Shown here one piece after another: positions 2,303 through 52,626 of a DNA stretch of 64,000 bases. The stretch is from assembly GCA_964548405.1 (NCBI GenBank), contig CAZJPW010000001.1:4054-68053 (forward strand), given 5' to 3'. The DNA is from an uncultured Candidatus Saccharibacteria bacterium. Its GTDB lineage: Bacteria; Patescibacteriota; Minisyncoccia; Portnoybacterales; UBA2143. Numbering within the stretch: position 1 is the first letter of the stretch; each line of letters begins with the position of its first letter. The position numbers were made by a program, and so were the translations under genes. The notes under the pieces are model-generated. The model had not been told where the DNA came from. It saw only the letters and a list, made by a program, of their open reading frames with translations, and did not search any database.

Positions 2303-4008
2303 AAAATTTAGAGCTTGCTCAAATATTCTATCAAATAGCTGAATATATTGAGATGGATGAGGCATCTTTTCGTTCCCGGGCATATAATAAGGCGGCTCGG
2401 GTTTTAGAATCCTTGGAATTGGATCTTGAAGGCATTTATCTAAAAGATGGTATTAAGGGCTTGAAGAGTCTTCCTGGAATAGGCCAGGCCATTTCTGAGA
2501 AAATAGAGGAATATCTTAAGACCGGCCAGATTAAAACTTTTAATAAGCTCCAAAAGCAATGCCCGGTTGATTTAGAAAAATTAATTAGCGTTGAAGGATT
2601 AGGTGCTAGAAAGATTAAAGTTTTATACAAAGAATTAAATATTAGAAATCTAAAAGATTTAGAAAAGGCAGCTAAGAAAGGTAAGATAGGTAAATTAGAT
2701 GGTTTTGGTGTAAAAAGCGAACAGAATATTCTTCAAGCAATTGAATTTGTCAAAGCCGGTCAAGATAGATTCTTGTTGGGCATGGCCCTACCCATAGTTA
2801 GAGAAATAGTCACTAAGTTGGGAAAACTGTCAGAGGTTAAAAAAATTAGTCCAGCTGGTTCAATTAGGCGTATGAAAGAAACGATTGGCGATCTTGATAT
2901 TTTGGTTGTATCTTCAAAACCAGAGAAAGTGATGGATTTTTTCGTAAATGGACCCAATGTGGTTAAAGTTTGGGCCCAAGGCTTGACTAAATCTTCAGTT
3001 AGGTTGAGAAATAATCTGGATTGTGATTTAAGGATAGTTAAAAGAGAAAGTTTTGGAGCCGCTCTTCAGTATTTTACGGGCAGCAAGGATCATAATATTG
3101 TAGTTCGAAAATTAGCTAAGAAAAAAGGATTGAAATTAAATGAATACGGAGTTTTTAAAGGCAAAAAACAAATAGCCGGTAAAAACGAGAAGGAAGTTTA
3201 TCAAAAAGTTGGACTTTCTTACATTGAACCAGAATTAAGGACTAATACAGGCGAGATTGAAGCTGGTTTGAAAAATAGGTTACCTAAGTTAGTTGAATTA
3301 AAAGACATCAAAGGCGATTGTCATTGTCATAGTAACTGGAGTGATGGAAGTGAAAAGATTGAAGATTTAGCCAAGGCAGCTAAAAAACTTGGATACAAGT
3401 ATATAGCTATTACAGATCATGCTGGATTTTTAAGGATAGCTCATGCCCTAGATGAGAAACAGCTCTTGAAACAAATGGAAGAAATTGATAGGATTAACAG
3501 TCGGCTTTCTGGGATAAAAATCATTAAAGGATCAGAAGTTGATATTGGGGCTGATGGGACGATGGCTATTAAAGATGAGGTTTTGGCCAAGTTAGATTAT
3601 GTTTTAGGTGGAGTTCATTCTAATTTTAAGATGAGTAGGCAAAATATGACTGAGAGATTAATTAGGGCTATGGAGAATTCTCATGTTAATGTAATCGCTC
3701 ATCCGACTGGTCGGGTACTTCAGCACAGGGAAGAGTATCAGTTGGATTTTGATAAGATTTTTAGGATAGCTAAGAAAACAAAAACGGCTTTGGAGATTAA
3801 TGCTAATGCTGGTCGTTTAGATCTGAAGGATGTATATATTCGTCAGGCTAAAGAAGCCGGTGTTAAAATGGTAATCGGTACAGATGCTCATTCTTTAGTA
3901 CATATGACGATGATGGAATTAGGTCTAGCTCAGGCGCGCCGAGGCTGGGCTGAACCAAAAGATATTTTAAATACGAAATCTTTGAGAGATTTTTTAAAAA
4001 GTTTCTAG
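2299..4008 (+). CDS. polX: DNA polymerase family X with C-terminal PHP phosphoesterase domain
   Basis: HhH motifs (GIG, LPGIG), a pol-beta nucleotidyltransferase core (GSIRR...DLDIL), and a PHP domain with CHCHSNWSDG and HP/H motifs. Confidence 0.8.
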   Translation: MKNLELAQIFYQIAEYIEMDEASFRSRAYNKAARVLESLELDLEGIYLKDGIKGLKSLPGIGQAISEKIEEYLKTGQIKTFNKLQKQCPVDLEKLISVEGLGARKIKVLYKELNIRNLKDLEKAAKKGKIGKLDGFGVKSEQNILQAIEFVKAGQDRFLLGMALPIVREIVTKLGKLSEVKKISPAGSIRRMKETIGDLDILVVSSKPEKVMDFFVNGPNVVKVWAQGLTKSSVRLRNNLDCDLRIVKRESFGAALQYFTGSKDHNIVVRKLAKKKGLKLNEYGVFKGKKQIAGKNEKEVYQKVGLSYIEPELRTNTGEIEAGLKNRLPKLVELKDIKGDCHCHSNWSDGSEKIEDLAKAAKKLGYKYIAITDHAGFLRIAHALDEKQLLKQMEEIDRINSRLSGIKIIKGSEVDIGADGTMAIKDEVLAKLDYVLGGVHSNFKMSRQNMTERLIRAMENSHVNVIAHPTGRVLQHREEYQLDFDKIFRIAKKTKTALEINANAGRLDLKDVYIRQAKEAGVKMVIGTDAHSLVHMTMMELGLAQARRGWAEPKDILNTKSLRDFLKSF

Positions 4009-4027
4009 GTGGTTAGATCTTTAATTT

Positions 4028-4055
4028 TTTAGCTTTAACAATTTAGCTTTAACAA
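4028..4055. repeat. Perfect tandem duplication of the 14-mer TTTAGCTTTAACAA immediately upstream of the purF RBS
   Basis: tttagctttaacaa occurs twice back to back, 4028-4041 and 4042-4055. It is followed by the SD AAGGAGGG and the ATG at 4070. Confidence 0.8.
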
Positions 4056-4069
4056 AAGGAGGGTAAGTT

Positions 4070-5383
4070 ATGAGGGACAATTGTGGAGTTTTTGGCATTC
4101 ATTCTTCTAAGGGGTGTGCTGAAAGTATTGAACGCGGCATTTTCCACTTACAGCATCGTGGCCAGGTGTATGCTGGCTTATCCGTTTTTAATGGACAGGA
4201 AATTATTTCCGAGGTAGGGAACGGATTGGTCAAGGAAGTTTTTCCGGCAAGGGATCTGGGAAACTGGGAGGGGAATTCTGGAATAGGGCATGTTAGCTTA
4301 ATGGATCCTCAGCCCCATTTAGTGGATTCCAAGATAGGCAAATTCGTTCTGGCTTTCAGCGGTAATTTGATTAACGGTCCAGAACTGCGGGAGAAATTAA
4401 AGAGCCAAAGAGAATCTTTTTCTACGTCTTATGATGTGGAGGTAATAGCCAGATTAATAGGTAAAGGAAAAGATTATATAAGCGGCATACAAGGAATGTT
4501 TCAAGAATGTAGAGGTGGCTATTCGCTGGTTTTACTAACCGATAACGGAGAAGTTTATGCAGCTAGGGATCCTTATGGGTTTAGACCGTTAATTCTGGCT
4601 AAGAATATTGACGGGTGTGCCGTAGCCTCTGAATCTCCTGCCCTAGAAGAAATAGGCATGGAAGTAGTTAGAGATGTCCGTCCAGGGGAGATTGTCCGAA
4701 TAGAAAAGAATGGTTTTTCCGTGGTTAGAGAATCACAACCGGAAAGAGCAGCCTATTGTGCTTTTGAATGGGCCTATATCGCCCGATTAGATTCTGTGAT
4801 CGAAGGTATTCCGGTCAAAAGAGCCAGGAATAATTTGGGCGGTGAGTTGGCTCAGGGAGATGAAGTGGAGGCGGACATCGTTGCTCCTATTCCTATGTCG
4901 GGCATCGGACACGCCCAGGGATATCATAGGGTGTCTGGCGTTCCTTATGATGATGTCTTTTTGTATAACAGATATTCGGATAGAAGTTATACGCCTCTTG
5001 ACCAGACAGTTAGAGATATCATAGCAAACGAAAAGCTCTCCGTTATCAAGGAATCTATTAAGGGGAAAAAGATCATTATTATCGATGATTCTATCGTCCG
5101 GGGGACCCAGATGAGAAAGCAGGTTTTCAGATTAAAGAAAGCAGGGGCTAATGAAATTCATGTCAGAGTAGCTTCACCTCCCTTAAAAGCTCCCTGCTTA
5201 TACGGGATTTCTACAACTTCCTATGAAGAGCTGGCTGCCGTCAATCATAGTACGGAGGAAATAAGGAAGATGATCGGAGCAGACACATTAAGGTTTAATA
5301 CCTTAGAAGGTTTCATCAGAGCCATCGGTCTGCCATCCGAAAGATTATGTTCATCTTGCTGGACTGGGGAGTATCCAGTTTGA
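4070..5383 (+). CDS. purF: Amidophosphoribosyltransferase (glutamine-PRPP amidotransferase)
   Basis: N-terminal nucleophile CGVFGI directly after the initiator region, PRTase motif IIIDDSIVRGTQ, and a C-terminal CxxC...GEYP cluster. Confidence 0.85.
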   Translation: MRDNCGVFGIHSSKGCAESIERGIFHLQHRGQVYAGLSVFNGQEIISEVGNGLVKEVFPARDLGNWEGNSGIGHVSLMDPQPHLVDSKIGKFVLAFSGNLINGPELREKLKSQRESFSTSYDVEVIARLIGKGKDYISGIQGMFQECRGGYSLVLLTDNGEVYAARDPYGFRPLILAKNIDGCAVASESPALEEIGMEVVRDVRPGEIVRIEKNGFSVVRESQPERAAYCAFEWAYIARLDSVIEGIPVKRARNNLGGELAQGDEVEADIVAPIPMSGIGHAQGYHRVSGVPYDDVFLYNRYSDRSYTPLDQTVRDIIANEKLSVIKESIKGKKIIIIDDSIVRGTQMRKQVFRLKKAGANEIHVRVASPPLKAPCLYGISTTSYEELAAVNHSTEEIRKMIGADTLRFNTLEGFIRAIGLPSERLCSSCWTGEYPV

Positions 5384-5444: not shown

Positions 5445-5816
5445 ATGGATCTTAAAACAAAAAACTGGATATTTGTTTTTGCTTGGGCTGGTTTTATCTT
5501 TTTTCTTTCTCACCAGCCTTTTCTTGAATCTGGTTTGCCTGGCCAGTGGGATTTTGTTTTGCGCAAGCTGGCCCATATTACTGAATACGCTATTTTAACT
5601 TGGCTTTTAATTAGGGCTCTGAAAGAATATCAATTAACAACTAGACAGATCATAATTTCATCTATAACTATAGTTGTGCTTTATGCTGTTTCTGATGAAT
5701 ATCATCAGACTTTTATTCTTGGACGCCAAGGCGCATTCCGTGATGTTTTAATAGATAGCATAGGTATTTTTCTAATAACTTGGTTTAATGGGAAAAAGAT
5801 GATAAAATTAAAATAG
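5445..5816 (+). CDS. VanZ-like membrane protein
   Basis: About 4 TM segments and a DEYHQTFILGRQGAFRDVLIDSIG motif resembling the VanZ family. Confidence 0.55.
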   Translation: MDLKTKNWIFVFAWAGFIFFLSHQPFLESGLPGQWDFVLRKLAHITEYAILTWLLIRALKEYQLTTRQIIISSITIVVLYAVSDEYHQTFILGRQGAFRDVLIDSIGIFLITWFNGKKMIKLK

Positions 5817-5818
5817 TT

Positions 5819-6892
5819 ATGATTGATTTTTCGCAAAAGCCAGCTTTTGGTTTAGATTTAAGCGACCTTTCCTTAAAGATTGTTGAAGTTAATAAAGGGA
5901 AGGGTAGTTTGTTTTTATCTAGTTTTCTTAAACAGGATATTCCTCAAGGTTTGATTGAAGGCGGAGTCATTAAAAAAGAAAAAGAATTAGTTGATATTTT
6001 AAAAAAGGCTTTAGATAAGATAAATGTAGGCAAGCGAGTGGTTTGTAACCTGCCAGAGGAAAAAGTTTTTATTAGAATTATTCAATTACCTAAGATGAAA
6101 GAGAGTGAATTAGAGAAAGCGGTTCATTGGGAAGCCGAAGCTCATATTCCTTTGGGCATTGATGAAGTATATCTTGGCTGGCAGCTTGTTGAACCAATTT
6201 TTGAACATATTGATCATTTGGACGTACTAATTGCAGCCACTCCTAAAACTTTAGTGGATAATTATTTAAGCTTTTTAAGAAAAAGCGGCCTGGAACCAGT
6301 AGCTTTAGAGCCAGAATCAGTTGCTGTAATCAGGAGTCTCATGACTGAGGATGATTTAACTCCTAGTATTATTGTTGATCTGGGAGCAGTAGGAACTAAT
6401 TTTGTCATTTTTTCTGCCCTAGCTATTCGTTTTACTTCGCATATTAATATTTCCGGCCAGCTTTTTAATCAAGCCATTGCCAAGAAATTGAAAGTCACTG
6501 AAAAGGAAGCCAATAAATTAAAGATAGAAGTTGGTCTAGATGAAAAAAAAGAAAATGGTAAAGTTTACAAGGCTTTAGAGCCGATTATTGATAATTTAAC
6601 TAAGCAAATCAAGGATTACGTCACTTTTTATCATGAGCATGCTACTCATGTTCATGGGCCGGACGGGGCTATTGGCCAGGTAATTCTTTGCGGAGGCGAT
6701 TCCTTATTAATCAATTTACCCAAAATATTAAATGAAAAATTAAATATGCCGGTCAAGATGGGTAACCCTTTGATTAATATTTCATCTACTCGCCTCGCTA
6801 CCAAGCGGGTTGATAAGAAAAAAGGCATTACTAAAAAAGAAACTTTTTCATATACCACTGCTTTAGGTTTAGCCTTAAAAAATTTCTTTTAA
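5819..6892 (+). CDS. pilM: Type IV pilus assembly ATPase-like protein PilM
   Basis: Actin-like fold at the N-terminus (FGLDLSDLSLKIVEV), PilM-like length, and pilN/pilO-like genes downstream. Confidence 0.75.
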   Translation: MIDFSQKPAFGLDLSDLSLKIVEVNKGKGSLFLSSFLKQDIPQGLIEGGVIKKEKELVDILKKALDKINVGKRVVCNLPEEKVFIRIIQLPKMKESELEKAVHWEAEAHIPLGIDEVYLGWQLVEPIFEHIDHLDVLIAATPKTLVDNYLSFLRKSGLEPVALEPESVAVIRSLMTEDDLTPSIIVDLGAVGTNFVIFSALAIRFTSHINISGQLFNQAIAKKLKVTEKEANKLKIEVGLDEKKENGKVYKALEPIIDNLTKQIKDYVTFYHEHATHVHGPDGAIGQVILCGGDSLLINLPKILNEKLNMPVKMGNPLINISSTRLATKRVDKKKGITKKETFSYTTALGLALKNFF

Positions 6893-31722: not shown

Positions 31723-34700
31723 TTATTCTAATACCTTAACATTATCACACAGGATTTTCAAGTTTCCATCGCGATCGCTTAGTCGTCCGCTGACCAGGAC
31801 AATTTTTTCTTCCTGCCAGGCAAAGGCAGTTTGCTCCAGGGTAGCGGGGAAGACTAAAGCTTCTATCCGGCCAGTCATGTCTTCTAGTTCAACAAAAAGC
31901 ATCGGTTGTCCAGTCTTGGTATTAACTTTTTGAATCTTATTAATCACCCCTCCGATCTTTATGCGATGTCCTACTTCTTTTTTAGAAAGCGCTTTGCAAG
32001 GATAGGCAGTTCGAGCTAGTTGGTCTTGGTAGTTTTTTAGGGGATGCTCGGAGATATATAGGCCGAGCAGTTCTTTTTCCCAACTAAGTCGCTCTTTTTT
32101 ATCGGCTGGTTCGACCTCGGGTAGTTTTAAAGAGGGAATAGCTACGTTTGTTTGGCCTCCGAATAAGCTGGCTTGACCATTTTGTTTGGCTTTTTGTATT
32201 TCCCTGGCCAGGTTAAGCATCTGATCCATGCCGATTAAGAGTTGATTTCTTTCTCCAAAGTCATCCAAAGCGCCACACTTAGCCAGACTTTCTAAAGATT
32301 TTTTATTGAGGTCTTTAGATTCGACTCGCTCAATGAAATCAGCAATTGATTTGTACTGGCCATTACTTTTCCTTTCATCAACGATCGCTTCAACCACGTT
32401 ATGACCCACATTTTTGATAGCCTTAAGTCCAAAATGAATAGTTTTCTCTCCTGCTTTACTGAAGTTTTTGTCGCTTTCATTGACATTAGGTGGCAGGACT
32501 TCAAGATTCATAGTTTTACATTCATCGACCAGGAGAGCAATTCGTTCAATGTCGTTTTGTTCAGAGGTCATTAAAGCAGCCATAAATTCAGTCGGGTAAT
32601 GTGCCTTGAGGTAGGCAGTCTGGTAGCCAATTAAGGCATAGGAAGCGGCATGGGCTCGATTAAATCCGTAAAGAGCAAATGGTTCAATTGTTTTCCATAT
32701 TTTTTTAGCGACTTTTTTCTCAATTCCGTTATTAACCATGCCGTCAATCACTTTTTCTTGTTGCTCGTCAAGTAATTTTTTAATCTTTTTACCAACTGCT
32801 TTACGTAAGACGTCTGCCTCAGAAAGCGTGAACTTGGCTAAATCGCGAGCGATTCTCATAAGTTGTTCTTGGTAAACCATTATGCCATAAGTATTTTCTA
32901 AAATTGGCTTTAAGTCAGGATGAAGATATTTAACTTCTTTTAAACCGTGCTTACGGGCAATGAATTCCGGGATGAATTCTATTGGTCCGGGCCGATAAAG
33001 GGAGACCATAGCGATTAAGTCTTCAAACTCGGTTGGCTTAAGCTGTTTAAGGTATCTTTTAAATCCTTGAGATTCAAACTGGAAGACACCGGTGGTGTTT
33101 CCTTGTTGGAATAGCTCAAAGCTTTTTTTGTCTGTTAAAGGTAGATTAGGTAAATCAATTTCTTTATTAGATAACTCCTTGATAGTGTTGATCGTGTTTT
33201 GGATGACGGTCAGAGTTTTTAATCCTAAGAAATCCATTTTTAATAGTCCCAGGGCTTCGATTGAACGCATTTCGTATTGGGTGACGATTGTTTCATCGCT
33301 CTGGCTTGGATATTGGGTAGGGACAGTCAAATCAAGCGGTTCTTTGGTAATAACTACACCACAAGCATGAGTTGAGACATGGCGAGCTACTCCTTCTAAT
33401 TTCATAGCCATATCGATTAATCTTTTAGTATTATCATCTGATTCGTATGACTGCTTCAGTTCCGGTGATTCATTAATGGCTTTTTCTAGGTTAGAGCCAA
33501 AAGGAACCATTTTAGCTATTTGGTCGCAGAAATTGTATGCATAATCTAGAGCCCTACCTACGTCGCGGATGGCTCCCCGGGCAGCCATAGTTCCAAAGGT
33601 AATGATTTGGGCAACATGGTCATGGCCGTATTTTTTGGAGACATATTCAATTACTTCATCTCTTCGGTCATCAGCAAAGTCTAAGTCAATGTCCGGCATT
33701 GAGATACGTTCTTTATTAATAAAGCGTTCAAAGAGTAAGTCATATTTCAAAGGGTCAATATCTGTTACATTTAAAAGATAAGCAACTATTGATCCGGCAG
33801 CTGATCCGCGGCCTGGACCAACAACAATCCCTTCATTTTTGGCCCAGTTGACAAAATCCTGGACGATCAGGAAATATGAGGCAAAACCAGTTTCTTTAAT
33901 TGCTCCCAGTTCGTGATCAAGTCTTTGTAATACTTCATTCAAAGGTTTTTCGAATTGGCGGTTTTTTAATCCTTGTTGGCAGAGTTCTTTTAAGTATTCA
34001 TCTAGAGTCTTGTTATCAGGCACTTCAAAATGAGGTAAATGGTATGTTTCTAAGTCAAATTGGAAATCGCACTGTTCGGTGATCTTCTGGGTATTAGTGA
34101 TTGCCTCCGGTATCTGTTCGAAATCTTTAATCATTTGTTCAGTTGACCTCAGGGAAAAGTCATCTGCTTTCATGGTTAGTCTTTCTTGGTCTTCAACTCT
34201 TTTATCTGTTTGGATGCTCATTAAGACGTCTTGGGCTTCGTTATCCTCTGATTTGACATAGTGGGCATCATTAGTGGCCACTAAAGGAATATTGTGTTTT
34301 TTGGCAATTTCAATAATTTCCTTATTAGCCTGATCTTGTCCGGTTAAGTTGGGATGATGTTGAATTTCTAGATAAAAGTTGCCCGGACCGAAGATTTTCT
34401 GATATTCCAAGGCCAGTTTTTCTGCTTGGTCGGGTTTTCCCTTAAGAATAGCTTGGGGAATTTCGCCCGCCAAACAAGCAGATAGGCCAATTAGGCCAGC
34501 GCTGTGTTTTTTAAGTAGTTTTTTGTCAATTCGGGGTTTGTAATAGAATCCTTCTAAATAGGCTTTAGTGGTTAATTTTATTAAATTCTTGTAACCCTCT
34601 TCATTTTTAACTAAAAGCACTAAGTGAAAACGCTTATTATCAATATTGGGCCTTTTTTGATGCATACTATTTGGTGTAACGTATGCTTCAGAGCCTAAAA

Positions 34701-34884
34701 TTGGCTTCATACCTCTTTTTTTAGCTTCTCGATAGAATTCAACCAGGCCGTACATGGAGCCGTGATCAGTTAAAGCGATTGAAGGCATTTTCAATTCTTG
34801 GCAAGCATCCAAAATCTGGCCAATTTTAGCCAGACCGTCTAAGAGGGAATAATGAGAGTGAACATGTAAGTGAGTAAACTTCAT
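31723..34884 (-). CDS. dnaE: DNA polymerase III alpha subunit
   Basis: N-terminal PHP (HLHVHSHYSLLDG), palm and fingers motifs, and an OB fold. Confidence 0.95.
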   Translation of the reverse strand: MKFTHLHVHSHYSLLDGLAKIGQILDACQELKMPSIALTDHGSMYGLVEFYREAKKRGMKPILGSEAYVTPNSMHQKRPNIDNKRFHLVLLVKNEEGYKNLIKLTTKAYLEGFYYKPRIDKKLLKKHSAGLIGLSACLAGEIPQAILKGKPDQAEKLALEYQKIFGPGNFYLEIQHHPNLTGQDQANKEIIEIAKKHNIPLVATNDAHYVKSEDNEAQDVLMSIQTDKRVEDQERLTMKADDFSLRSTEQMIKDFEQIPEAITNTQKITEQCDFQFDLETYHLPHFEVPDNKTLDEYLKELCQQGLKNRQFEKPLNEVLQRLDHELGAIKETGFASYFLIVQDFVNWAKNEGIVVGPGRGSAAGSIVAYLLNVTDIDPLKYDLLFERFINKERISMPDIDLDFADDRRDEVIEYVSKKYGHDHVAQIITFGTMAARGAIRDVGRALDYAYNFCDQIAKMVPFGSNLEKAINESPELKQSYESDDNTKRLIDMAMKLEGVARHVSTHACGVVITKEPLDLTVPTQYPSQSDETIVTQYEMRSIEALGLLKMDFLGLKTLTVIQNTINTIKELSNKEIDLPNLPLTDKKSFELFQQGNTTGVFQFESQGFKRYLKQLKPTEFEDLIAMVSLYRPGPIEFIPEFIARKHGLKEVKYLHPDLKPILENTYGIMVYQEQLMRIARDLAKFTLSEADVLRKAVGKKIKKLLDEQQEKVIDGMVNNGIEKKVAKKIWKTIEPFALYGFNRAHAASYALIGYQTAYLKAHYPTEFMAALMTSEQNDIERIALLVDECKTMNLEVLPPNVNESDKNFSKAGEKTIHFGLKAIKNVGHNVVEAIVDERKSNGQYKSIADFIERVESKDLNKKSLESLAKCGALDDFGERNQLLIGMDQMLNLAREIQKAKQNGQASLFGGQTNVAIPSLKLPEVEPADKKERLSWEKELLGLYISEHPLKNYQDQLARTAYPCKALSKKEVGHRIKIGGVINKIQKVNTKTGQPMLFVELEDMTGRIEALVFPATLEQTAFAWQEEKIVLVSGRLSDRDGNLKILCDNVKVLE

Positions 34885-34920
34885 GAGCGTATTATATCAC
34901 TTTATAAAATGGAGTAAACC

Positions 34921-34977
34921 TTGACAGAATGTGTGGGTATGGTATTAATATTCTATCTATGTCGTATGAGACATAGA
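34921..34977 (+). promoter_or_regulatory. Promoter plus an 8-bp inverted repeat at the predicted start site of the 143-aa gene
   Basis: -35 TTGACA at 34921-34926, a 16-nt spacer, -10 TATTAA at 34943-34948, then TCTATGTC-gtatga-GACATAGA at 34956-34977. Confidence 0.5.
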
Positions 34978-35011
34978 AATAAAAGAGGCTAAGCCTCAAG
35001 AGGAGGGAAAC

Positions 35012-35443
35012 ATGTATAAGCCGAAGATAAGTATCGATTTATTTTCTAGTACTGGAGTTATGGGTCGGAGCGGTGAGCCTACTTTAATCCAAATAGGTCA
35101 AGTGTTCCAAGGTTGTCTTTTAGCCTTTGAACAGCTCGGTCAAGTGGTGAGAATATTGGAGGTGATTAGGGTGACGTTCAAGTATCCCTCACGAGATTCC
35201 AATCTACATGCTTATTTAAAGGTGGTTTTAGCTGAACCGGGTAATCGAGATAGAAAGTTTGAAATGTCTCCTTTAGATGAAATATCGGTTGGTGATTACC
35301 CTGATGCTTTTTTTGTTCCTAAACAAATCGCTCATAATCTCATATTTTGGATAAAGAAAACGATTGGATACAAAATTACGAGCAAACAAAATAATTTGGA
35401 GGAAATGAAAAAGATACTATCATCTGTTTCTATTAAAGAATAA
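35012..35443 (+). CDS. Hypothetical protein (143 aa) with no recognisable motif
   Basis: Strong RBS AGGAGGGAAAC before the ATG. GC content somewhat above the local background. Confidence 0.5.
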   Translation: MYKPKISIDLFSSTGVMGRSGEPTLIQIGQVFQGCLLAFEQLGQVVRILEVIRVTFKYPSRDSNLHAYLKVVLAEPGNRDRKFEMSPLDEISVGDYPDAFFVPKQIAHNLIFWIKKTIGYKITSKQNNLEEMKKILSSVSIKE

Positions 35444-35454
35444 CGAATCAACAG

Positions 35455-35489
35455 GATGCCGGGGCGGCAATATCGTCTCGGTATCTTTT
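35455..35489 (+). terminator. Hairpin plus T4 after the 143-aa gene
   Basis: GATGCCG...CGGTATC (7 bp with one G-U pair) followed by TTTT. Confidence 0.4.
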
Positions 35490-35526
35490 AATTTTACCTT
35501 GAAAAATATTCTTTTGCTGTTATACT
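35489..35526 (+). promoter_or_regulatory. Promoter copy 1 of a duplicated element (TTTTAATTTTAcCTTGAAAA ... TATACT)
   Basis: -35 TTGAAA at 35499-35504, 16 nt, -10 TATACT at 35521-35526. The same roughly 20-nt upstream motif recurs at 36309-36348. Confidence 0.5.
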
Positions 35527-35585
35527 AGCGATTAGGTTATATCATAGAACATTAAATTATTAATACATATATATGGAGGTGATTC

Positions 35586-35858
35586 GTGGAAAATATAATA
35601 AAGGAGTTAGTTGATGGATCGGAATTGAGCCACAACGAAATTGTTTTTCTGGCTGGAGCCGCTTCTCATACTTATCTTATGAGCTTGATTAGAGGAAAAA
35701 TTAATACTCCTAGAAGACAAAAGCTTATAAACTTGGGTATGGCTTTGAATCTAAGTATGGAGGAACTTGAAAAATTGTTATTAAGGTATAACTATCGGGA
35801 CATAACAGGAAATCAACGTGATGTCGATGCTTTGATAACTTGGGCTGGGCTAAGATAA
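35586..35858 (+). CDS. XRE-like helix-turn-helix protein (GTG start, RBS GGAGGT)
   Basis: The helix-turn-helix pattern SHNEIVFLAGAASHTYLMSLIRGKINTPRRQKLINLGMALNLSMEELEKLL. Confidence 0.5.
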   Translation: MENIIKELVDGSELSHNEIVFLAGAASHTYLMSLIRGKINTPRRQKLINLGMALNLSMEELEKLLLRYNYRDITGNQRDVDALITWAGLR

Positions 35859-35876
35859 ATCAGCGGATTCCAGGCT

Positions 35877-36266
35877 ATGAAAGAGGGATTGAATTGTGAA
35901 CTTTCAATGATGTCTTTTGATATGGTTCCGGGAAATTGGGTCTTAGTTGGTGATTTGTCAGATATGTATACGCCGATTATTCAAGTTGATCCTTCTAATC
36001 TAGTAGACTCTCTTATTCAAAGCATCCGTAAAGAGAGATTGAAAGTTGTTGAACGGATGTTGAAAGAATATTCGATGACAGAATTACCCAATGATAGTTT
36101 AGTTTTTGGAATCAAGTTTAGCAGGAGAAATAAATTTCTTTTCTTTGTTGGTCGGTCAATTCATAGTTCATCACATGGCGCCTTAAAAGGATTTATAACC
36201 GATAAAGGGAAAATTATTGATCATTTTTTGGCAGAGGCAGAAAGAATTAAGTCTTTAATTTCTTGA
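35877..36266 (+). CDS. Hypothetical protein (129 aa) downstream of the HTH gene
   Basis: No recognisable motif. Co-directional with the HTH gene, 18 nt after it. Confidence 0.45.
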   Translation: MKEGLNCELSMMSFDMVPGNWVLVGDLSDMYTPIIQVDPSNLVDSLIQSIRKERLKVVERMLKEYSMTELPNDSLVFGIKFSRRNKFLFFVGRSIHSSSHGALKGFITDKGKIIDHFLAEAERIKSLIS

Positions 36267-36278
36267 TAAATCTTTCGG

Positions 36279-36310
36279 ACTGCGGGTAACAATGTTGCTC
36301 GCAGTTTTTT
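36279..36310 (+). terminator. Rho-independent terminator (ACTGCG...CGCAGT plus T6)
   Basis: Read directly from the sequence. Confidence 0.6.
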
Positions 36311-36348
36311 AATTTTAGCTTGAAAATGACTAATTTAACCGCTATACT
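36309..36348 (+). promoter_or_regulatory. Promoter copy 2 of the duplicated element, driving ligA, probably leaderless
   Basis: -35 TTGAAA at 36320-36325, 17 nt, -10 TATACT at 36343-36348. The ligA ATG at 36357 is about 8 nt after the -10 and has no SD. Confidence 0.5.
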
Positions 36349-36356
36349 ACATATAT

Positions 36357-38333
36357 ATGGATAAATCAGCTGCCAAGAAACGAATAGCTAAATTAAGTGA
36401 TGTAATTAGATCTCATAATTACAAGTATCATGTTTTGGATAAGCCGGAAATCAATGATGCTGCTTTTGATTCTTTAAAACATGAGCTTTCTAAATTGGAA
36501 GAAGAGTATCCTGATTTGGTTACTTTAGATTCGCCGACTCAAAGAGTTAATGGACAAGCCTTAGATAAGTTTGAAAAAGTAAAGCATAAGAAAAGGATGC
36601 TTTCTTTAGAGGATGTCTTCTATTTCAAAGAACTAGAGTCGTGGCAGGAAAGAATTCAGAAATTGGTTCCTTCAACTAAGCTGGAATATTTTGCAGAATT
36701 AAAAATAGATGGTTTTGCTGTATCTTTAATTTACAAGGATGGAATTTTTGTTAGGGGAGCAACTCGAGGTGATGGAATAATTGGTGAAGATGTCACTCAG
36801 AATTTAAAAACAATTAACTCTATTCCTTTGAAATTAGAAACAAGTAAAAAAGAAGTAGAAATTCGGGGCGAGGTATATATGACTAAATCTACTTTTGAAG
36901 CGATTAATCAGGAGAGAAAAGAGCAGAAGTTATCTCTTTATGCTAATCCTAGAAATACAGCGGCCGGCAGCATTCGTCAGCTTGATCCTAAGATTGCCGC
37001 CTCTCGTAAGCTAGAGTTTTTAGCCTATGATATTGTTACTGATTTAGGGCAAAAAACCCACCAACAAGAGCATCAGATTTTGCGTGATTTAAAATTTAGA
37101 ACCAGCAAGGAACAAGACTGTAGTAATATTAAACAAGTGGCTGAATTCAGAGAAAAGATTAAAAGAATTAGGAAAAGATTGGCCTATCAGATTGATGGTT
37201 TGGTGATTAAGGTTGATAATAATAGGGTTTTTGAAAAGCTAGGCGTGGTTGGTAAAGCGCCTCGGGGTGCTATTGCTTATAAATTCCCGGCTAAAGAATC
37301 AGCTTCAGTAGTTAAAAATATTGTAATTCAGGTGGGCCGGACGGGCGCTTTAACTCCAGTAGCTGTTTTAAAGCCAGTAAACATAGGCGGCACTCTGGTT
37401 ACTCGAGCTACTTTACATAATGCAGATGAAATCAAAAGATTAGATGTCAGAATTGGTGATACAGTTATTATCCAGCGGGCCGGCGATGTTATTCCTGATG
37501 TGGTTAAAGTTGTTAAAGAATTAAGAACAGGCCATGAAAAGAAGTTCATTATGCCCAAGAAATGTCCGGCTTGTGGGGGCGGAGTTATTAGACCCAAAGG
37601 AGAAGTAGTCTATCGTTGCGCTAACAAAGAATGTGGCTTAATCAGGGAAAAGGGAATTATCCATTTTGTTTCTAAAAAAGGCTTTAATATTGATGGATTG
37701 GGTCCTCGAATTATTAATCAATTAATGGATCAAGGATTAATTTCCAACGTGGCTGACCTATTTTCTTTGGATCAGGGTGATTTAGTTCCTTTAGAGCGTT
37801 TTGCAGAAAAATCAGCTCTTAATTTAGTTGAAGCAGTTGAACAAAGCAAAAAGATTTCTTTAGATAGATTTATTTATGCTTTGGGTATCCGTCATGTGGG
37901 CGAGGAAACAGCTATTGCTTTAGCTCAGCATTTCGGCAGCTTAAAAAAGTTAACCAGGGCAAGTCAAGACAGGTTGGCTGGAATTGAAGATGTCGGCCAA
38001 ATAGTTGCCCAAAGCATCATTAAATGGTTTAATAGTAAAAGAAACACGGCTTTGATTGATAGTTTAATTAAAAATGGGGTTGTCATTAAAAAAGTTAAGG
38101 CTTTTGAAAGAAAATTAACTGGTCAGAGTTTTGTTTTGACTGGTGAGTTGGATTCATATACTAGAGAAGAGGCCAAAACCAAGATTAGACAATTGGGCGG
38201 AGAAGTTCCTAATTCAGTTTCTAAACAGACAGACTATCTCATTACTGGAAAGAATCCCGGTTCTAAATATGCCAAAGCTAAAAAATTGGGTCTTAAGATT
38301 ATTAGCGAAAAAGAATTTTTAGAAATCTTATGA
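36357..38333 (+). CDS. ligA: NAD-dependent DNA ligase
   Basis: Adenylation motif ELKIDGFAVSL (KxDG), OB fold, Zn-finger CPACGG..C..C, HhH motifs and a BRCT domain. Confidence 0.95.
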   Translation: MDKSAAKKRIAKLSDVIRSHNYKYHVLDKPEINDAAFDSLKHELSKLEEEYPDLVTLDSPTQRVNGQALDKFEKVKHKKRMLSLEDVFYFKELESWQERIQKLVPSTKLEYFAELKIDGFAVSLIYKDGIFVRGATRGDGIIGEDVTQNLKTINSIPLKLETSKKEVEIRGEVYMTKSTFEAINQERKEQKLSLYANPRNTAAGSIRQLDPKIAASRKLEFLAYDIVTDLGQKTHQQEHQILRDLKFRTSKEQDCSNIKQVAEFREKIKRIRKRLAYQIDGLVIKVDNNRVFEKLGVVGKAPRGAIAYKFPAKESASVVKNIVIQVGRTGALTPVAVLKPVNIGGTLVTRATLHNADEIKRLDVRIGDTVIIQRAGDVIPDVVKVVKELRTGHEKKFIMPKKCPACGGGVIRPKGEVVYRCANKECGLIREKGIIHFVSKKGFNIDGLGPRIINQLMDQGLISNVADLFSLDQGDLVPLERFAEKSALNLVEAVEQSKKISLDRFIYALGIRHVGEETAIALAQHFGSLKKLTRASQDRLAGIEDVGQIVAQSIIKWFNSKRNTALIDSLIKNGVVIKKVKAFERKLTGQSFVLTGELDSYTREEAKTKIRQLGGEVPNSVSKQTDYLITGKNPGSKYAKAKKLGLKIISEKEFLEIL

Positions 38334-40626: not shown

Positions 40627-41055
40627 TTAATCTGCTTTTGCTTTTGCTTTTAGGAAGCTTACCAGTTTTGTTTTGTCGTGGGACAAGACGAATATTCCGG
40701 CGACTTCCAGGGTAACCCGGGTCATTTGAGGCAAGACGTTTACTTTGTCTGCGTGAAAGTGTCCCTTTGATAAGAAATTTATCAAATAGAGGACCGCAGT
40801 GGTGATAAACCAGACACAGACGAAGAATTGATCCGGTCTTTTTGTTTGACTGGAGTTCAATAGCGCCTTCCGGTGTACTGTGTATGTGGACAGTGCCCCG
40901 ATATATAGTGCCTCGATGCCGGTAAGTGGATACCCTCCTTTAGTGAAAAATCTTATCATCATCATTCCTAGTGTAGCGAATGTAATGAATAGACAGATGG
41001 AACGGAGAGATTTATCCATCATATCTCCATTGGTTCTCTTTTCTTTCGTATCCAT
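40627..41055 (-). CDS. Hypothetical integral membrane protein
   Basis: About 4 TM segments. Confidence 0.45.
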   Translation of the reverse strand: MDTKEKRTNGDMMDKSLRSICLFITFATLGMMMIRFFTKGGYPLTGIEALYIGALSTYTVHRKALLNSSQTKRPDQFFVCVWFITTAVLYLINFLSKGHFHADKVNVLPQMTRVTLEVAGIFVLSHDKTKLVSFLKAKAKAD

Positions 41056-41251: not shown

Positions 41252-41272
41252 GTGATATCTATTTAATTGTAG

Positions 41273-41346
41273 TAGCGAGGGTGAGACTCGAACTCACAAC
41301 CTCTGTCGTATGAAAACAGCGCTCTGACCAGTTGAGCTACCTCGCC
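41273..41346 (-). tRNA. tRNA with anticodon CAT (elongator Met or lysidine-Ile2 type)
   Basis: The reverse complement folds as acceptor GGCGAGG/CCTCGCT, anticodon loop TTCATAC, T-arm GTGAG TTCGAGT CTCAC. Confidence 0.75.
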
Positions 41347-41350
41347 ATAA

Positions 41351-42031
41351 TTATTTTACATAATTTCTCATCTTCTCGATCATCCCATCCATTTGATACT
41401 TAAAAGTCGAGCTTTTTAATAATCTTACTGATATCGTCCCGTAATGGTTATTGAAATTTTTGTAAACTTTTTTGTTCTTTGCTTTTATTAAGACTGTTTT
41501 GCCAAATTGACTTTTTGGTATTCCTGTTGTTTTTGACCAATAATTTTCAACTTTTTTTAATCTTTTTTTGTGGATTTGATTGATTCCTATATGTAACTTA
41601 ATCTGATTTTTTTTGAATCCCCAGATTTCTTCAAACCAGTTAATCATAAATTTAACCATTTGTGGATCAGAGTTTCCTAACCTTACCATATTGTCTTTTT
41701 TGTCTCCTTCACCCCAATAAAGCGCCACTCCCGCAATCAATAAATCTCTTTTGCTTAATTTATTGATCTGTTTAGCTCCTATTTTATTAAGTTCTTCTAC
41801 TTTTTTTAAATATTTTTCTCTTTGTACCCTGGCACCTTTTAAACGTCCTTTATAGCTACCTTTTATTTTTCTTTCATCAAGTTTAGCTATTTGTCTCTTT
41901 GTAAGTTGGATATCTCTGCACCAAATACTAACAGTACTTTTTGATACTTTTAGTTTTTTAGCGATTTCTTTTATGCTTTCACCGTTTCTTCTTAGTTCTT
42001 GGGCTTTAATTTTCTCTTTAAATTTCGCCAT
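41351..42031 (-). CDS. HTH-domain protein with a LAGLIDADG-like motif (possible free-standing homing endonuclease) embedded in the tRNA cluster. The track ORF extends to 42091; the probable start is the ATG at 42031 (MAKFKEK), which has a GAAGG RBS
   Basis: The N-terminal HTH ESIKEIAKKLKVSKSTVSIWCRDI and an internal segment DLLIAGVALYWGEGDK. The gene ends 5 nt before the tRNA-CAT 5' end. Confidence 0.45.
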   Translation of the reverse strand: MAKFKEKIKAQELRRNGESIKEIAKKLKVSKSTVSIWCRDIQLTKRQIAKLDERKIKGSYKGRLKGARVQREKYLKKVEELNKIGAKQINKLSKRDLLIAGVALYWGEGDKKDNMVRLGNSDPQMVKFMINWFEEIWGFKKNQIKLHIGINQIHKKRLKKVENYWSKTTGIPKSQFGKTVLIKAKNKKVYKNFNNHYGTISVRLLKSSTFKYQMDGMIEKMRNYVK

Positions 42032-42114
42032 ATACAAACCTTCTATCATTAGATATACTACTATTATACAGGAGGTTCGGAAATATATCAATTATTCAAT
42101 TGTGGAAAACCTTG

Positions 42115-42185
42115 TTGCGCGGCCGGGAATCGCACCCGGGTCTTGAGGTTATGGGCCTCACGAGATACTGCTTCTCCACCGCGCA
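42115..42185 (-). tRNA. Second CAT-anticodon tRNA (Met or initiator-like; atypical)
   Basis: The reverse complement folds as acceptor TGCGCGG/CCGCGCA, D-stem GAGA/TCTC (A11:U24), anticodon stem TGAGG/CCTCA with loop CCCATAA (C33), T-arm CCGGG TGCGATT CCCGG. The boundaries are plus or minus 1 nt. Confidence 0.55.
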
Positions 42186-43645: not shown

Positions 43646-48773
<5,128 letters not shown>

Positions 48774-50088: not shown

Positions 50089-50640
50089 TTAATTCAGTAG
50101 GCCCTTAAGATGAGCTCTACAGAATGCGGCGATTGTCGCTGTATCTGTAATTTGGTCGTCACTGATGAGAGCCGAGAGATAATTAGTGGAATATTGATGA
50201 ATTTCAAACATGTTTTCATCCAGAGGATCTGTTCTAGGATTAGGGATTTTTTTCACGTTTTTAGCCAAATAAATTCTTCCTTTGGCTTTAACACTAACTC
50301 CAATTTCTTTAATGAAGCCCAAGTCGGTCCATTCGTCTGACTTCAGATGAATTTCTTCTTCTAATTCTCGCTTAGCGGCCTCAAGTGGGGTTTCGTTCAG
50401 ATCGACTACGCCACCAGGAAATTCGATGGTGAATTTTCCGATTGGGTAGCGATGGCTTCCTACCGTCCAGATTTTTCCATCTGAATCAATAGGGATAATC
50501 ATAACAAAGGGGCGTCTCATCTTAATCCATGTATAGAGGCGTTTTTCACCTCCGGGTGACAGTACTGTGTCCTCTATTACTTGGAAGAATGGAAAATCAT
50601 GAATTTTCTTTGTTTCAACTTTCGTCCAAGGCTTTATCAT
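50089..50640 (-). CDS. Nudix hydrolase (ADP-ribose pyrophosphatase-like)
   Basis: Nudix box GGVVDLNETPLEAAKRELEEEIHL. Confidence 0.75.
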   Translation of the reverse strand: MIKPWTKVETKKIHDFPFFQVIEDTVLSPGGEKRLYTWIKMRRPFVMIIPIDSDGKIWTVGSHRYPIGKFTIEFPGGVVDLNETPLEAAKRELEEEIHLKSDEWTDLGFIKEIGVSVKAKGRIYLAKNVKKIPNPRTDPLDENMFEIHQYSTNYLSALISDDQITDTATIAAFCRAHLKGLLN

Positions 50641-50772
50641 TTTGGTCCTCCTTCTGGTTTGGGGTTAAAGAGCTTCAGATAATTAATGAAATACTAACCT
50701 CTATTTACAAATTTGTCAAAAAACTTTACTTTTATAACGTTTTGTTATAGAATAACTAAAATATCTAAAAAT

Positions 50773-51303
50773 ATGAGGAAGATTGCTAATCAAAAGAAGA
50801 TTATTGACTATAAAGAATTAAGTAAAATAGTCGAAGCCTATAGAATTTTAGGGAAAAGAGTTGTCTGTACTATAGGTTCTTGGGATATGTTGCATATTGG
50901 TCATTTACGCTATTTAAATAGAGCTAAGAGTTTAGGTGACGTTTTAATAGTCGGAGTTGATAGCGATAGGGCAATTAGGATTTACAAAAATAGTTCAATA
51001 AGACCGATAATTCCAGAAAATGAAAGGATGGAAATGTTAGGCTATCAGGAGTTTATAGACTATGTTACTTTAGTGGATGATGTTGATGATAAAGGTAATT
51101 GGAAATTAGGACTTGTTAAGAAGGTTAATCCTGATATTTTTGTTGCGGTGGCAGACGAGAGCTATTCAGATCAACAAAAGAAAGATATAGCTAAGCTTTG
51201 CGGTAAATTACATATTTTACCCCGGCAGGCTAGAAAGACTTCAAACACTAATATAGTGGAGGAAGTTTTCAAGAAGAAGATAGAACATCTTTTAAATAAA
51301 TGA
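50773..51303 (+). CDS. Cytidylyl/adenylyltransferase-family protein (HIGH-type nucleotidyltransferase, RfaE domain II/TagD-like). The track ORF starts at 50713
   Basis: GSWDMLHIGHLRYL (HxGH) and LIVGVDSD. Confidence 0.65.
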   Translation: MRKIANQKKIIDYKELSKIVEAYRILGKRVVCTIGSWDMLHIGHLRYLNRAKSLGDVLIVGVDSDRAIRIYKNSSIRPIIPENERMEMLGYQEFIDYVTLVDDVDDKGNWKLGLVKKVNPDIFVAVADESYSDQQKKDIAKLCGKLHILPRQARKTSNTNIVEEVFKKKIEHLLNK

Positions 51304-51743
51304 CGAAAAAGGTAGTCAATTTAAAATATGCTAAAACAAAAGACTATGGCAATGTTTTAAAGACTATAGATGGTATAAATAAGTGTCCCTTTTGTAAAGA
51401 AAATTTTAAATATCATAGGAAACCAGTAATTAGAAAAGAAAAAAGTTGGTTTTTAACAGAAAATACCTGGCCTTATAAGAATTCTCAATATCATTTCATA
51501 ATTATTTCAGAAAAGCACAAAGAAGAATTTAATCAATTAACTCAAACCGATTTTAGGACTGTTTCTAAATTGGTAAACTGGGCCATCAAAAAATATAGAA
51601 TTAAGGGTGGTGGATTAACAATGAGATTTGGCAATTCTAATTATACTGGGGCTACAGTTCATCATATTCATTTTCATCTAATTGTTCCAAAATTTAATAA
51701 GAAAAAGAAAGAGGTAGATCCAGTATATTTTCCCATTGGTTAA
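51300..51743 (+). CDS. HIT-family (histidine triad) nucleotide hydrolase/transferase
   Basis: C-terminal triad VHHIHFHLIV. Confidence 0.7.
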   Translation: MTKKVVNLKYAKTKDYGNVLKTIDGINKCPFCKENFKYHRKPVIRKEKSWFLTENTWPYKNSQYHFIIISEKHKEEFNQLTQTDFRTVSKLVNWAIKKYRIKGGGLTMRFGNSNYTGATVHHIHFHLIVPKFNKKKKEVDPVYFPIG

Positions 51744-52626
51744 AATGAAAAATCTAGATAATAAAAATATTTTAGTCATTGCTGAGTTACCAGTTATTCA
51801 CAAAGGATATCTAGAGGCTTTTTTAAAAATAAAGAAAGATAATCCCAAAACCCATTTCTATATGGGTTTTTTAGGTAATAGAATCATTAAAGAATTAACT
51901 AAGTTGGAATCTGATATTAGGAAAATTTCTTTTGAGGATTCTAAAAAAATATTAGACTGTTATTTACCAATTAAGAAATGTTTTTTGGTAACTAGAGATA
52001 GTTTTTCCAAGATTAATAAAAGTGTAAAATTTAACAAAATTATAGTTTTTCGAGGAGAAAAAAGTGAACAATTCGCTAAGAAAATATTAAAAGAGAATAA
52101 ATATAAAAAGTTGACTAAGTTTTATGATATAAGGTTGAGGTGGGAGGATGATAAAGTGGCTGAATTCAGAAAAAATAAGAGTAAAATTTTAAAACCAGAA
52201 TTGGAAATTCATAAAAAGTTTATCAAAAAAGCTTTTAGAGAGATAGAAAAATCTAAATGTTGGTGGCGTCAAGTAGGAGCAATTTTAGTTAAAAACAAAA
52301 AAGTTATTTTTACCGCTTTTAATGAAATGATGCCAACTGATGACGAGTGCTATAAGATTGGATGTATTAGAGATCATATCAAGCCTGGAGAAAAGTCAGA
52401 AGTGTGTAGTGTTTCTCATGCTGAGGCATCTATTGTAGCTAGAGCGGCTAACCAAGGCATTTCTTTGAAAAGAACTACTCTTTACGTAACTCATTTTCCT
52501 TGTCCGGCTTGCGCTAAGTTAATCGCCTTATCAGGTATAAAAACAGTTGTTTATACCCGGGGTTCATCTGTTTTTGATGGGGCCCGAGTGATGAAAGATA
52601 ACGGTATTAAATTGATAAAAATTTAA
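51736..52626 (+). CDS. dCMP/cytidine deaminase domain protein with an N-terminal domain of unknown function (about 150 aa)
   Basis: C-terminal CDA zinc motifs HAEASI...PCPACAK. The N-terminal half has no recognisable motif. Confidence 0.7.
   Translation: MVKMKNLDNKNILVIAELPVIHKGYLEAFLKIKKDNPKTHFYMGFLGNRIIKELTKLESDIRKISFEDSKKILDCYLPIKKCFLVTRDSFSKINKSVKFNKIIVFRGEKSEQFAKKILKENKYKKLTKFYDIRLRWEDDKVAEFRKNKSKILKPELEIHKKFIKKAFREIEKSKCWWRQVGAILVKNKKVIFTAFNEMMPTDDECYKIGCIRDHIKPGEKSEVCSVSHAEASIVARAANQGISLKRTTLYVTHFPCPACAKLIALSGIKTVVYTRGSSVFDGARVMKDNGIKLIKI

Follow-up and report, generated by a model that had tools for sequence, protein, structure and literature searches.

Three small open reading frames (ORFs) occupy the 1472 nucleotides (nt) between the divergent starts of dnaE and ligA in a 64-kb stretch of contig CAZJPW010000001.1 from an uncultured Patescibacterium (the stretch is hereafter called the window; overall guanine-plus-cytosine (GC) content 0.363). 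We propose, with moderate confidence, that this module is a lineage-specific accessory insertion of ~1.4 kb, composed of moron-like units, in a variable slot between the two essential genes. The ORFs, which a preliminary description of this DNA had placed between dnaE and ligA and which are indeed present there, all lie on the plus strand: ORF143 (35012-35443; 143 amino acids (aa)), ORF90 (35586-35858; 90 aa, GTG start) and ORF129 (35877-36266; 129 aa), the last of which begins 18 nt past ORF90 in the same frame and lacks a Shine-Dalgarno site. The left neighbor of the module is dnaE (31723-34884, minus strand) and the right neighbor is ligA (36357-38333, plus strand).

The dnaE-ligA interval in related genomes

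Relatives of the locus were fetched by means of ligA from GTDB genomes and by means of the dnaE N-terminus from JGI metagenomes, and the top relatives of both genes were all metagenome-assembled genomes of Patescibacteria (Candidate Phyla Radiation, CPR). The slot was compared in nine genomes, the window included, all of which have the divergent dnaE-ligA arrangement. The results showed that the two genes are separated by promoters only in L011 (gap of 75 nt), L091 (77 nt), L016 (80 nt) and L095 (86 nt), the first of these being the closest relative found, with 88 and 80% amino acid identity in dnaE and ligA, respectively. The gap of L096 measures 197 nt (5804-6000) and contains TCTAAT-type repeats. 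Genes fill the slot in three other relatives: L014 (1056 nt) has a 102-aa membrane ORF with its own promoter and terminator and, on the other strand, an ORF of 80 aa, L092 (1153 nt) has a 193-aa ORF and a 54-aa zinc-ribbon-like ORF, and L093 (1492 nt) has a 396-aa ORF on the opposite strand. Thus, four of the nine genomes (these three and the window) bear 1.0-1.5 kb of mutually unrelated cargo, and no cargo protein was common to more than one of the nine. A sensitive phmmer search, in which the three module proteins were run against every ORF in 160 related loci, yielded nothing below E = 0.3. This synteny settles the accessory status of the module, which the preliminary description had surmised. 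In the dnaE tree, the window pairs with L011, L014 with L095, and L092 with L093, and every insert-bearing genome has a sister that either lacks an insert or carries a different one; this pattern indicates that the compact slot is ancestral and that it was filled independently at least four times.

The same interval holding different or no cargo in relatives is the mark of an integration hotspot, and that is what was found here. Chromosomal integration hotspots flanked by core genes are said to have been described by Oliveira, Touchon, Cury and Rocha in Nat Commun in 2017. Like such hotspots, the slot carries cargo that is unrelated or absent among relatives and turns over between sister lineages, and there is no integrase or tRNA at the site. 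Unlike them, it is tiny (1-1.5 kb, one to three genes), it lies inside back-to-back leaderless promoters, and the promoter of an essential gene has been duplicated in it.

Several minor observations touch on the slot. Compact examples can be inspected at L011 4648-4722 and L016 140-219, and the corresponding edges in the window are 34885-34918 and 36343-36359. In the gap of L096, which has a GC content of 21%, tandem and inverted copies of TCTAAT(T) stand in place of genes. Strain-level heterogeneity at the slot would be in keeping with the contigs of L013 and L015, both of which terminate right at the ligA start. Upstream of ligA, L012 has a gene with an NYN domain (139-675; Pfam E = 3e-16) and not dnaE.

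Promoters of the slot and putative copies of the ligA promoter

The ancestral slot of ~80 nt amounts to two back-to-back promoters, one for dnaE on the minus strand and one for ligA on the plus strand. The ligA promoter, with the order CTTGAA[A/G]A, 17 nt, TATACT, ACATAT and ATG, is kept in all nine genomes. With each -10 element ending only 6-8 nt before the ATG, the transcripts of both genes appear to be leaderless. A promoter scan placed the dnaE promoter at 34891-34918 on the minus strand (-35 TTTACT, 16 nt, extended -10 TGATATAAT); its end lies 6 nt upstream of the dnaE ATG, from which a leaderless dnaE mRNA is predicted. Two motifs that are conserved in the intergenic regions of the relatives, TATATCA(C/T)TT and GTAAA(T/C)C, are explained by this predicted promoter, which is the conserved boundary of the slot on its left side.

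The preliminary description had noted an element of about 20 nt, followed by TATACT, that occurs twice. The -35 element in question, TTTTAATTTTA[C/G]CTTGAAAA, is 20 nt long and was found exactly twice in 64 kb, compared with 0.24 copies expected, and only one of 100 shuffles reached two; both copies are followed by TATACT at a spacing of 16 or 17 nt. Copy 1 (35486-35505) belongs to P2 (35486-35526, plus strand), which has TTGAAA from 35499 and TATACT at 35521-26 and is the predicted promoter of ORF90-ORF129. Copy 2 (36307-36326) belongs to P3 (36307-36356, plus strand), with TTGAAA from 36320, TATACT at 36343-48 and the leaderless ligA start. The assignment of one copy to the pair of ORF90 and ORF129 and of the other to ligA therefore agrees with what had been described, the copies corresponding to predicted promoters P2 and P3, respectively. 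The two promoters have 19 of the 20 nt of the -35 element in common (z = 6.1), and consensus-like promoters are scarce in the window, where six sequences, P2 and P3 among them, fit a relaxed pattern. By alignment with the relatives, the ancestral ligA promoter, including part of its spacer (TTTAAC..G), has its orthologue in predicted promoter P3 and a paralogous copy in predicted promoter P2. The idea that the module was built on a duplicated promoter can thus be made more specific: it was the ancestral ligA promoter that was duplicated.

Additional traces of the ligA start were detected around ORF90. Fourteen nucleotides of the ligA -10/start region, TACATATATATGGA (36348-61), recur without a mismatch on the plus strand at 35564-35577, ~40 nt downstream of P2; in Markov shuffles, an exact match of at least 13 nt had a P of about 0.002. 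An exact 11-mer of ligA codons 2-5, GATAAATCAGC, is found on the plus strand at 35854-35864. These left and right halves of a ligA-start relic flank ORF90 precisely and share GA at the junction, and the right half supplies the ORF90 stop codon. The bodies of the ORFs resemble neither ligA nor any other part of the window, and their descent by divergence from the 5′ coding region of ligA was rejected, given that Smith-Waterman scores were no better than those of shuffles.

The predicted promoter of ORF143, P1 (34921-34948, plus strand), consists of TTGACA (34921-26), a 16-nt spacer and TATTAA (34943-48); like P2 and P3, it is sigma-70-like. TGg stands ahead of the -10, much as in the extended type, and P1 was not listed by the promoter scan because its -10 lacks the conserved last T. 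In a positional alignment, the P1 -35 (CTTGACA) abuts the dnaE -35 at the position of the ancestral ligA -35. In addition, P1 is homologous to the left promoter of the L014 slot (z = 8.6), which stands ahead of an unrelated first cargo gene. At the right edge, L092, with different cargo, has the same junction before ligA as the window, i.e., a terminator followed by TTTTTATTTTATCCTTGAAGA.

Transcription units and their signals

Each unit had been said to possess its own promoter and terminator, and P1/T1 as well as P2/T2 could be located, both terminators being strong. Terminator T1 (35453-35496, plus strand) has a 15-bp stem (35453-35487, z = -4.6) and a T-tract that enters the 20-nt element of P2. 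Terminator T2 (36277-36316, plus strand) follows ORF129 with a 14-bp stem (36277-36307, z = -5.5) and a T-tract; there is no terminator between ORF90 and ORF129. Strong Shine-Dalgarno sites precede ORF143 (GAGGAGGG, 35000-35007) and ORF90 (GGAGGTGA, 35575-35582), both on the plus strand.

The combination of P1 (TTGACA, 16 nt, TATTAA) with a perfect 8-bp inverted repeat at its predicted start, also reported earlier, was confirmed. The repeat, TCTATGTC-GTATGA-GACATAGA (34956-34977, plus strand), is unique in the window, where no second copy with up to three mismatches was found. It is the sole strong palindrome of the module, with none at P2 or P3; within 35480-35600 around P2, the only inverted repeat of at least 7 nt was an A/T palindrome overlapping the -35. 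The 5′ untranslated region (UTR) of ORF143, which also contains a second, small hairpin (GAGGCTAAGCCTC, 34985-34997, plus strand), folds as RNA with -18.1 kcal/mol (z = -4.6), and the inverted repeat may be either a 5′-terminal mRNA hairpin or a candidate operator. An Rfam search returned sub-threshold noise only. Relic leaderless ATG codons follow two of the promoters: the one after P2 opens a mini-ORF of 13 codons (35573-35614, MEVIRGKYNKGVS) that overlaps the ORF90 start out of frame, and the one after P1 opens a mini-ORF of five codons (34959-34976).

In its organization the module resembles a phage moron, which has been defined as an independent transcription unit (promoter-gene-terminator) inserted between conserved genes (PMC3594210). 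Like morons, the units of the module have their own promoter and terminator and stand between genes that are adjacent in L011, L016, L091 and L095; the module leaves its conserved neighbors undisturbed, is absent from close relatives and is accessory, and ORF143 has a phage-family domain. Unlike morons, it resides in a bacterial chromosome outside any prophage context (the flanks hold ribosomal-protein, thrS, dnaE, ligA and gatCA genes), it shows no compositional deviation, and its promoters are apparently copies of that of the neighboring host gene ligA and not imported.

The N-terminus of ORF143 and a phage protein family

Residues 1-52 of ORF143 matched the phage family phrog_5615 in hmmscan (E = 0.0046 with the whole protein and 7.3e-4 with the N-terminal fragment). 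Separately, tblastn found gp232 of Bacillus phage W.Ph., a 64-aa member of phrog_5615, which aligned with ORF143 from Met1 with 38% identity over 52 residues. Across six phage members there are 12 invariant columns, including QG and LEV motifs. A profile-profile comparison of ORF143 and phrog_5615 by hhalign gave a probability of 88%, P = 2.8e-6 and a score of 36.1, against 10.8 ± 2.1 (maximum 20.1) for 200 shuffles, and when the phage profile was run over 17.5k background ORFs, ORF143 was its sole match (E = 0.0015). The family itself, made up of 64-aa hypothetical proteins of Bacillus Wphvirus (Herelleviridae), is restricted to 54 Wphvirus records and had no relative in Pfam or PDB. ORF143 resembles it over residues 1-52 starting from the initiator Met; unlike the family, ORF143 has an extra C-terminal part of ~90 residues, for which no match was found, and is encoded by a Patescibacterium, not by a Bacillus phage. 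Beyond the W.Ph. gp232 lead for ORF143, phage, plasmid and IMG/VR searches returned nothing for the module proteins. On these alignments, the ORF143 N-terminus is a borderline remote relative of phrog_5615 and not a close member. The preliminary description had found no assignable motif in any of the three proteins, and this has to be amended for the N-terminus of ORF143.

ORF90, ORF129 and the possibility of a toxin-antitoxin pair

ORF90 had been called a helix-turn-helix (HTH) protein of the XRE type, which could be confirmed only weakly. Against Pfam, ORF90 gave nothing even at E ≤ 10. A first XRE profile was built from six classical domains, confirmed by a PDB search as P22 C2, 434 Cro and cI, SinR, HipB and a restriction-modification controller protein; in hhalign it aligned weakly with ORF90 residues 15-63 in the expected register (P = 0.006). 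With a 12-sequence profile, in which the six classical domains were joined by six bona fide XRE domains from related CPR loci, the alignment spanned residues 5-63, and with them the whole HTH domain in the expected register, with P = 1.5e-4, a probability of 51% and a score of 25.3, compared with 10.4 ± 2.0 (maximum 14.9) for shuffles, i.e., a z of about 7. In hmmsearch with the XRE profile, ORF90 scored 7.5 bits vs 29-58 bits for true XRE proteins of the related genomes. Together, these comparisons suggest that ORF90 is likely a divergent XRE-like HTH protein, as yet unproven, in which the aligned HTH domain is followed by a 27-aa C-terminal tail. The only PADLOC match of the module was that of ORF90 to PDC-M57A (E = 0.015, 13.7 bits), and a PDB match to Dpo4 was rejected (E about 0.6). 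An N40K substitution in ORF90 (L171 1022-1294, sample ERZ23499040), the only variant of the module in public data, affects the loop that follows the putative recognition helix.

For ORF129, no significant match was found in Pfam, NCBIfam, PADLOC or PHROGs, and there was no phage, plasmid or IMG/VR match. It retrieved only itself in a word-indexed search of 5.8 billion clusters, and a full HMMER search over 1.84 billion representative proteins yielded no credible relative. Two candidates were rejected: the designed repeat protein 'Bagel', its only PDB match with a low E-value, which sums weak repeat matches, and P0004, an FG-GAP/VCBS-like repeat protein, five repeats of which each match residues ~14-40 weakly and thereby inflate the score. 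By these searches ORF129 is an apparent orphan protein, and it is predicted to be co-transcribed with ORF90.

The pair could alternatively be a type II toxin-antitoxin or small abortive-infection module, in which ORF129 would be a novel 129-aa toxin and ORF143 an unrelated neighbor. XRE-type antitoxins are common in type II systems, e.g., HipB, and HipB was among the top matches of the XRE profile built here. ORF90 and ORF129 are co-directional, lie 18 nt apart, and have one promoter (P2) and one terminator (T2) between them; the HTH-like domain of ORF90 with its 27-aa tail could bind a partner, and both genes are accessory genes in a variable slot. A small, putatively HTH-encoding gene and a small gene in one operon with accessory distribution is what type II operons such as HipBA, HigBA and Xre-RES have in common with the module. 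Unlike those operons, the module pairs its putative HTH gene with a protein that belongs to no recognizable toxin family and has no homologues, it has no operator at P2, and there is evidence of separate arrival. Neither ORF90 nor ORF129 gave anything significant in Pfam, NCBIfam, PADLOC, PHROGs or PDB, PADLOC-DB 2.0 contained no defence-model match for ORF143 or ORF129, and ORF129 thus falls outside all toxin and defence families of these collections and has no credible relative among the 1.84 billion representatives, whereas toxin-antitoxin families are normally widespread and mobile. P2 is without an inverted repeat for autoregulation. The slot cargo of the other genomes is equally devoid of significant Pfam and PADLOC matches, defence matches included. 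Finally, the repeat footprint around ORF90 suggests that it entered apart from ORF129, which argues against a co-mobile pair. We therefore consider a toxin-antitoxin or abortive-infection module unlikely. The preliminary description had pointed to an antitoxin-toxin or small-defence layout; the layout alone speaks for this, and no toxin, antitoxin or defence family match, no operator at P2 and, as shown below, no GC argument could be added to it.

Coding signal, composition and the nature of the ORFs

For each of the three ORFs, the annotated frame had the top codon score of the six frames. The preliminary claim that the 143-aa gene is GC-enriched did not hold: the GC contents of ORF143, ORF90 and ORF129 are 0.361, 0.363 and 0.338, respectively, vs 0.363 for the window, and that of ORF143 reaches 0.41 only in its first ~250 nt, a value that falls within the dnaE range as well. 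In trinucleotide composition, too, the module is ordinary (72nd percentile in the window). When the start regions of 69 ORFs were inspected, a Shine-Dalgarno match of at least 6 nt at usable spacing was seen in ~6 of the 69 window genes, and the strong sites of ORF143 and ORF90 are hence atypical for the window, while ORF129 has none, as is the case for most core genes. The bearers of such sites also include an accessory-looking ORF (40627-41055, minus strand) and a NUDIX gene on the opposite strand (50089-50640, minus strand). In this genome, such strong sites may be a sign of monocistronic or acquired genes. Fourteen public contigs from several samples carry the module, and their DNA is 100% identical save for the N40K variant of ORF90.

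Some of these properties would also be expected if the ORFs were young proto-genes or fast-evolving sequence in a slot that is transcribed constitutively by way of duplicated strong promoters, with little or no function except for the ORF143 N-terminus. ORF129 and the C-terminal part of ORF143 are orphans, GC content and trinucleotides are host-like, the codon bias is weaker than that of core genes, the promoters are local duplicates and not imported, and the slot of L096 grew by non-coding repeats. In contrast, frames of 129-143 codons are improbable at 36% GC (with ~7% stops per triplet, an estimated 3e-5 or so per start), each ORF is clearly best in its own frame, two of them have strong and well-spaced Shine-Dalgarno sites, the ORF bodies resemble neither ligA nor the rest of the window, and remote homology is detectable for ORF143 and ORF90. 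Proto-genes are, on this balance, a distinctly unlikely account of the module.

Another reading takes ORF90 and ORF129 as the halves of a single 226-aa regulator of the XRE family that was split by an in-frame stop, and that would now be a pseudogene or a read-through gene. The two share a reading frame (35586 and 35877 both being divisible by 3), they are separated by one TAA and six sense codons, and ORF129 has no Shine-Dalgarno site. A shared frame, however, has a prior probability of one in three, and the genes of this genome as a rule lack a Shine-Dalgarno site. Moreover, the TAA is part of the 11-nt relic derived from ligA, pointing to a junction between pieces that were acquired separately, every contig, across several samples, has the same stop, and the homologue searches of ORF90 and ORF129 found no fused homologue. 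A split gene is accordingly very improbable. That the region is a non-coding spacer with chance ORFs, as the lack of conservation or family match over most of its sequence might imply, is extremely improbable in view of the ORF lengths, the frame-specific codon scores, the Shine-Dalgarno sites, the promoters and terminators that bracket the ORFs precisely, and the remote homology of ORF143 and ORF90.

A possible history of the insertion

An accessory insertion of moron-like units into the slot could have come about as follows. The ancestral slot of ~80 nt would have held only the two back-to-back promoters, each giving a leaderless mRNA. Since each unit is headed by a copy or derivative of the ligA promoter, successive captures of cargo probably took place at or just after the ligA start; each capture may have been preserved together with a duplication of the promoter, and presumably only those events survived that kept a working promoter before the essential ligA gene. 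ORF90 was probably the last to arrive, entering the leader of ORF129 inside the duplicated ligA start. In the resulting arrangement, unit 1 would run from P1 through the hairpin-containing 5′ UTR and ORF143 to T1, and unit 2 from P2 through ORF90 and ORF129 to T2. With read-through blocked by T2 and the native leaderless start restored by P3, expression of ligA-gatCA should stay normal. With low confidence, ORF90 may be a small regulator that binds DNA and is co-produced with ORF129, itself an orphan cytoplasmic protein, and ORF143 may be a phage-related small protein. As the sole palindrome of the module lies at the start of ORF143, the simplest circuit would be one in which ORF90 represses ORF143 there. 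The three ORFs could be dispensable, niche-specific or phage-related accessory genes, an assignment that we likewise hold with low confidence.

A number of points weigh against this account. The 11-mer that forms the right half of the relic has a P of only about 0.03, and the similarity of P1 to P2 and to P3 is not significant alone, leaving its link to the ligA promoter to rest on position and on the relatives. Host-like GC content and trinucleotide composition lend no compositional support to a recent foreign origin, and the codon scores of the module ORFs (0.04-0.14) are below the range of the core genes (0.17-0.42). Since the public contigs are identical but for one substitution, they offer no population or comparative evidence of purifying selection, and a ratio of nonsynonymous to synonymous substitution rates (dN/dS) cannot be derived from variants. 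ORF143 and ORF90 retrieved only themselves in the word-indexed search of 5.8 billion clusters and, on the basis of this search alone, have no full-length relatives. Single-sequence AlphaFold2 models of ORF143 and ORF129 had predicted local distance difference test (pLDDT) values of 34 and 38 and provide no evidence of a fold. Binding of ORF90 to the P1 palindrome, lastly, is pure inference.

The module would represent no new kind of system; what appears somewhat unusual is that the site lies inside back-to-back leaderless promoters and that the promoter of an essential gene was reused more than once. A bolder version, which we regard as decidedly improbable, holds that the slot is an integrase-free gene-capture site of the clade, in which surviving captures duplicate the ligA promoter so that the cargo is expressed at once and is insulated by terminators, and that ORF90 and ORF129 are the founders of a novel regulator-effector family of the toxin-antitoxin or defence type. 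On the accessory-insertion reading, the locus offers a small and clean case of gene gain, without harm to an essential neighbor, in a CPR genome that is streamlined and largely operonic, the ligA promoter being kept in copies on both sides of each unit. The slot would also be a concrete place to harvest and compare the strain-specific genes of the clade, and one CPR orphan gene can be tentatively linked to a phage protein family.

Other features of the window

The window contains a ribosomal-protein cluster, secY, adk, map, thrS, dnaE, ligA, gatC, gatA, pheST and an intein-containing gyrB. The strongest trinucleotide outliers are found at ~3500-4300 and ~50500-52000 and have no relation to the module. 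The minus-strand ORF at 40627-41055 encodes an orphan-like protein of 142 aa and has its own consensus promoter (41121-41094; TTGACA, 16 nt, TATTAT) as well as its strong Shine-Dalgarno site; it has a raised GC content (0.42) and the poorest codon score among the small ORFs checked, gave no Pfam match and adjoins tRNA-Asp and tRNA-Met genes. Between two tRNA-Met genes (41272-41346 and 42114-42185), a minus-strand gene (41351-42091) encodes a 246-aa protein with an N-terminal HTH_23/HTH_38 domain (a transposase- or resolvase-like HTH) and may be a remnant of a mobile element. The gyrB gene (45516-48773) encodes 1085 aa with the intein, and the identical gene in L001 and L002 has a Pfam Intein_splicing match.

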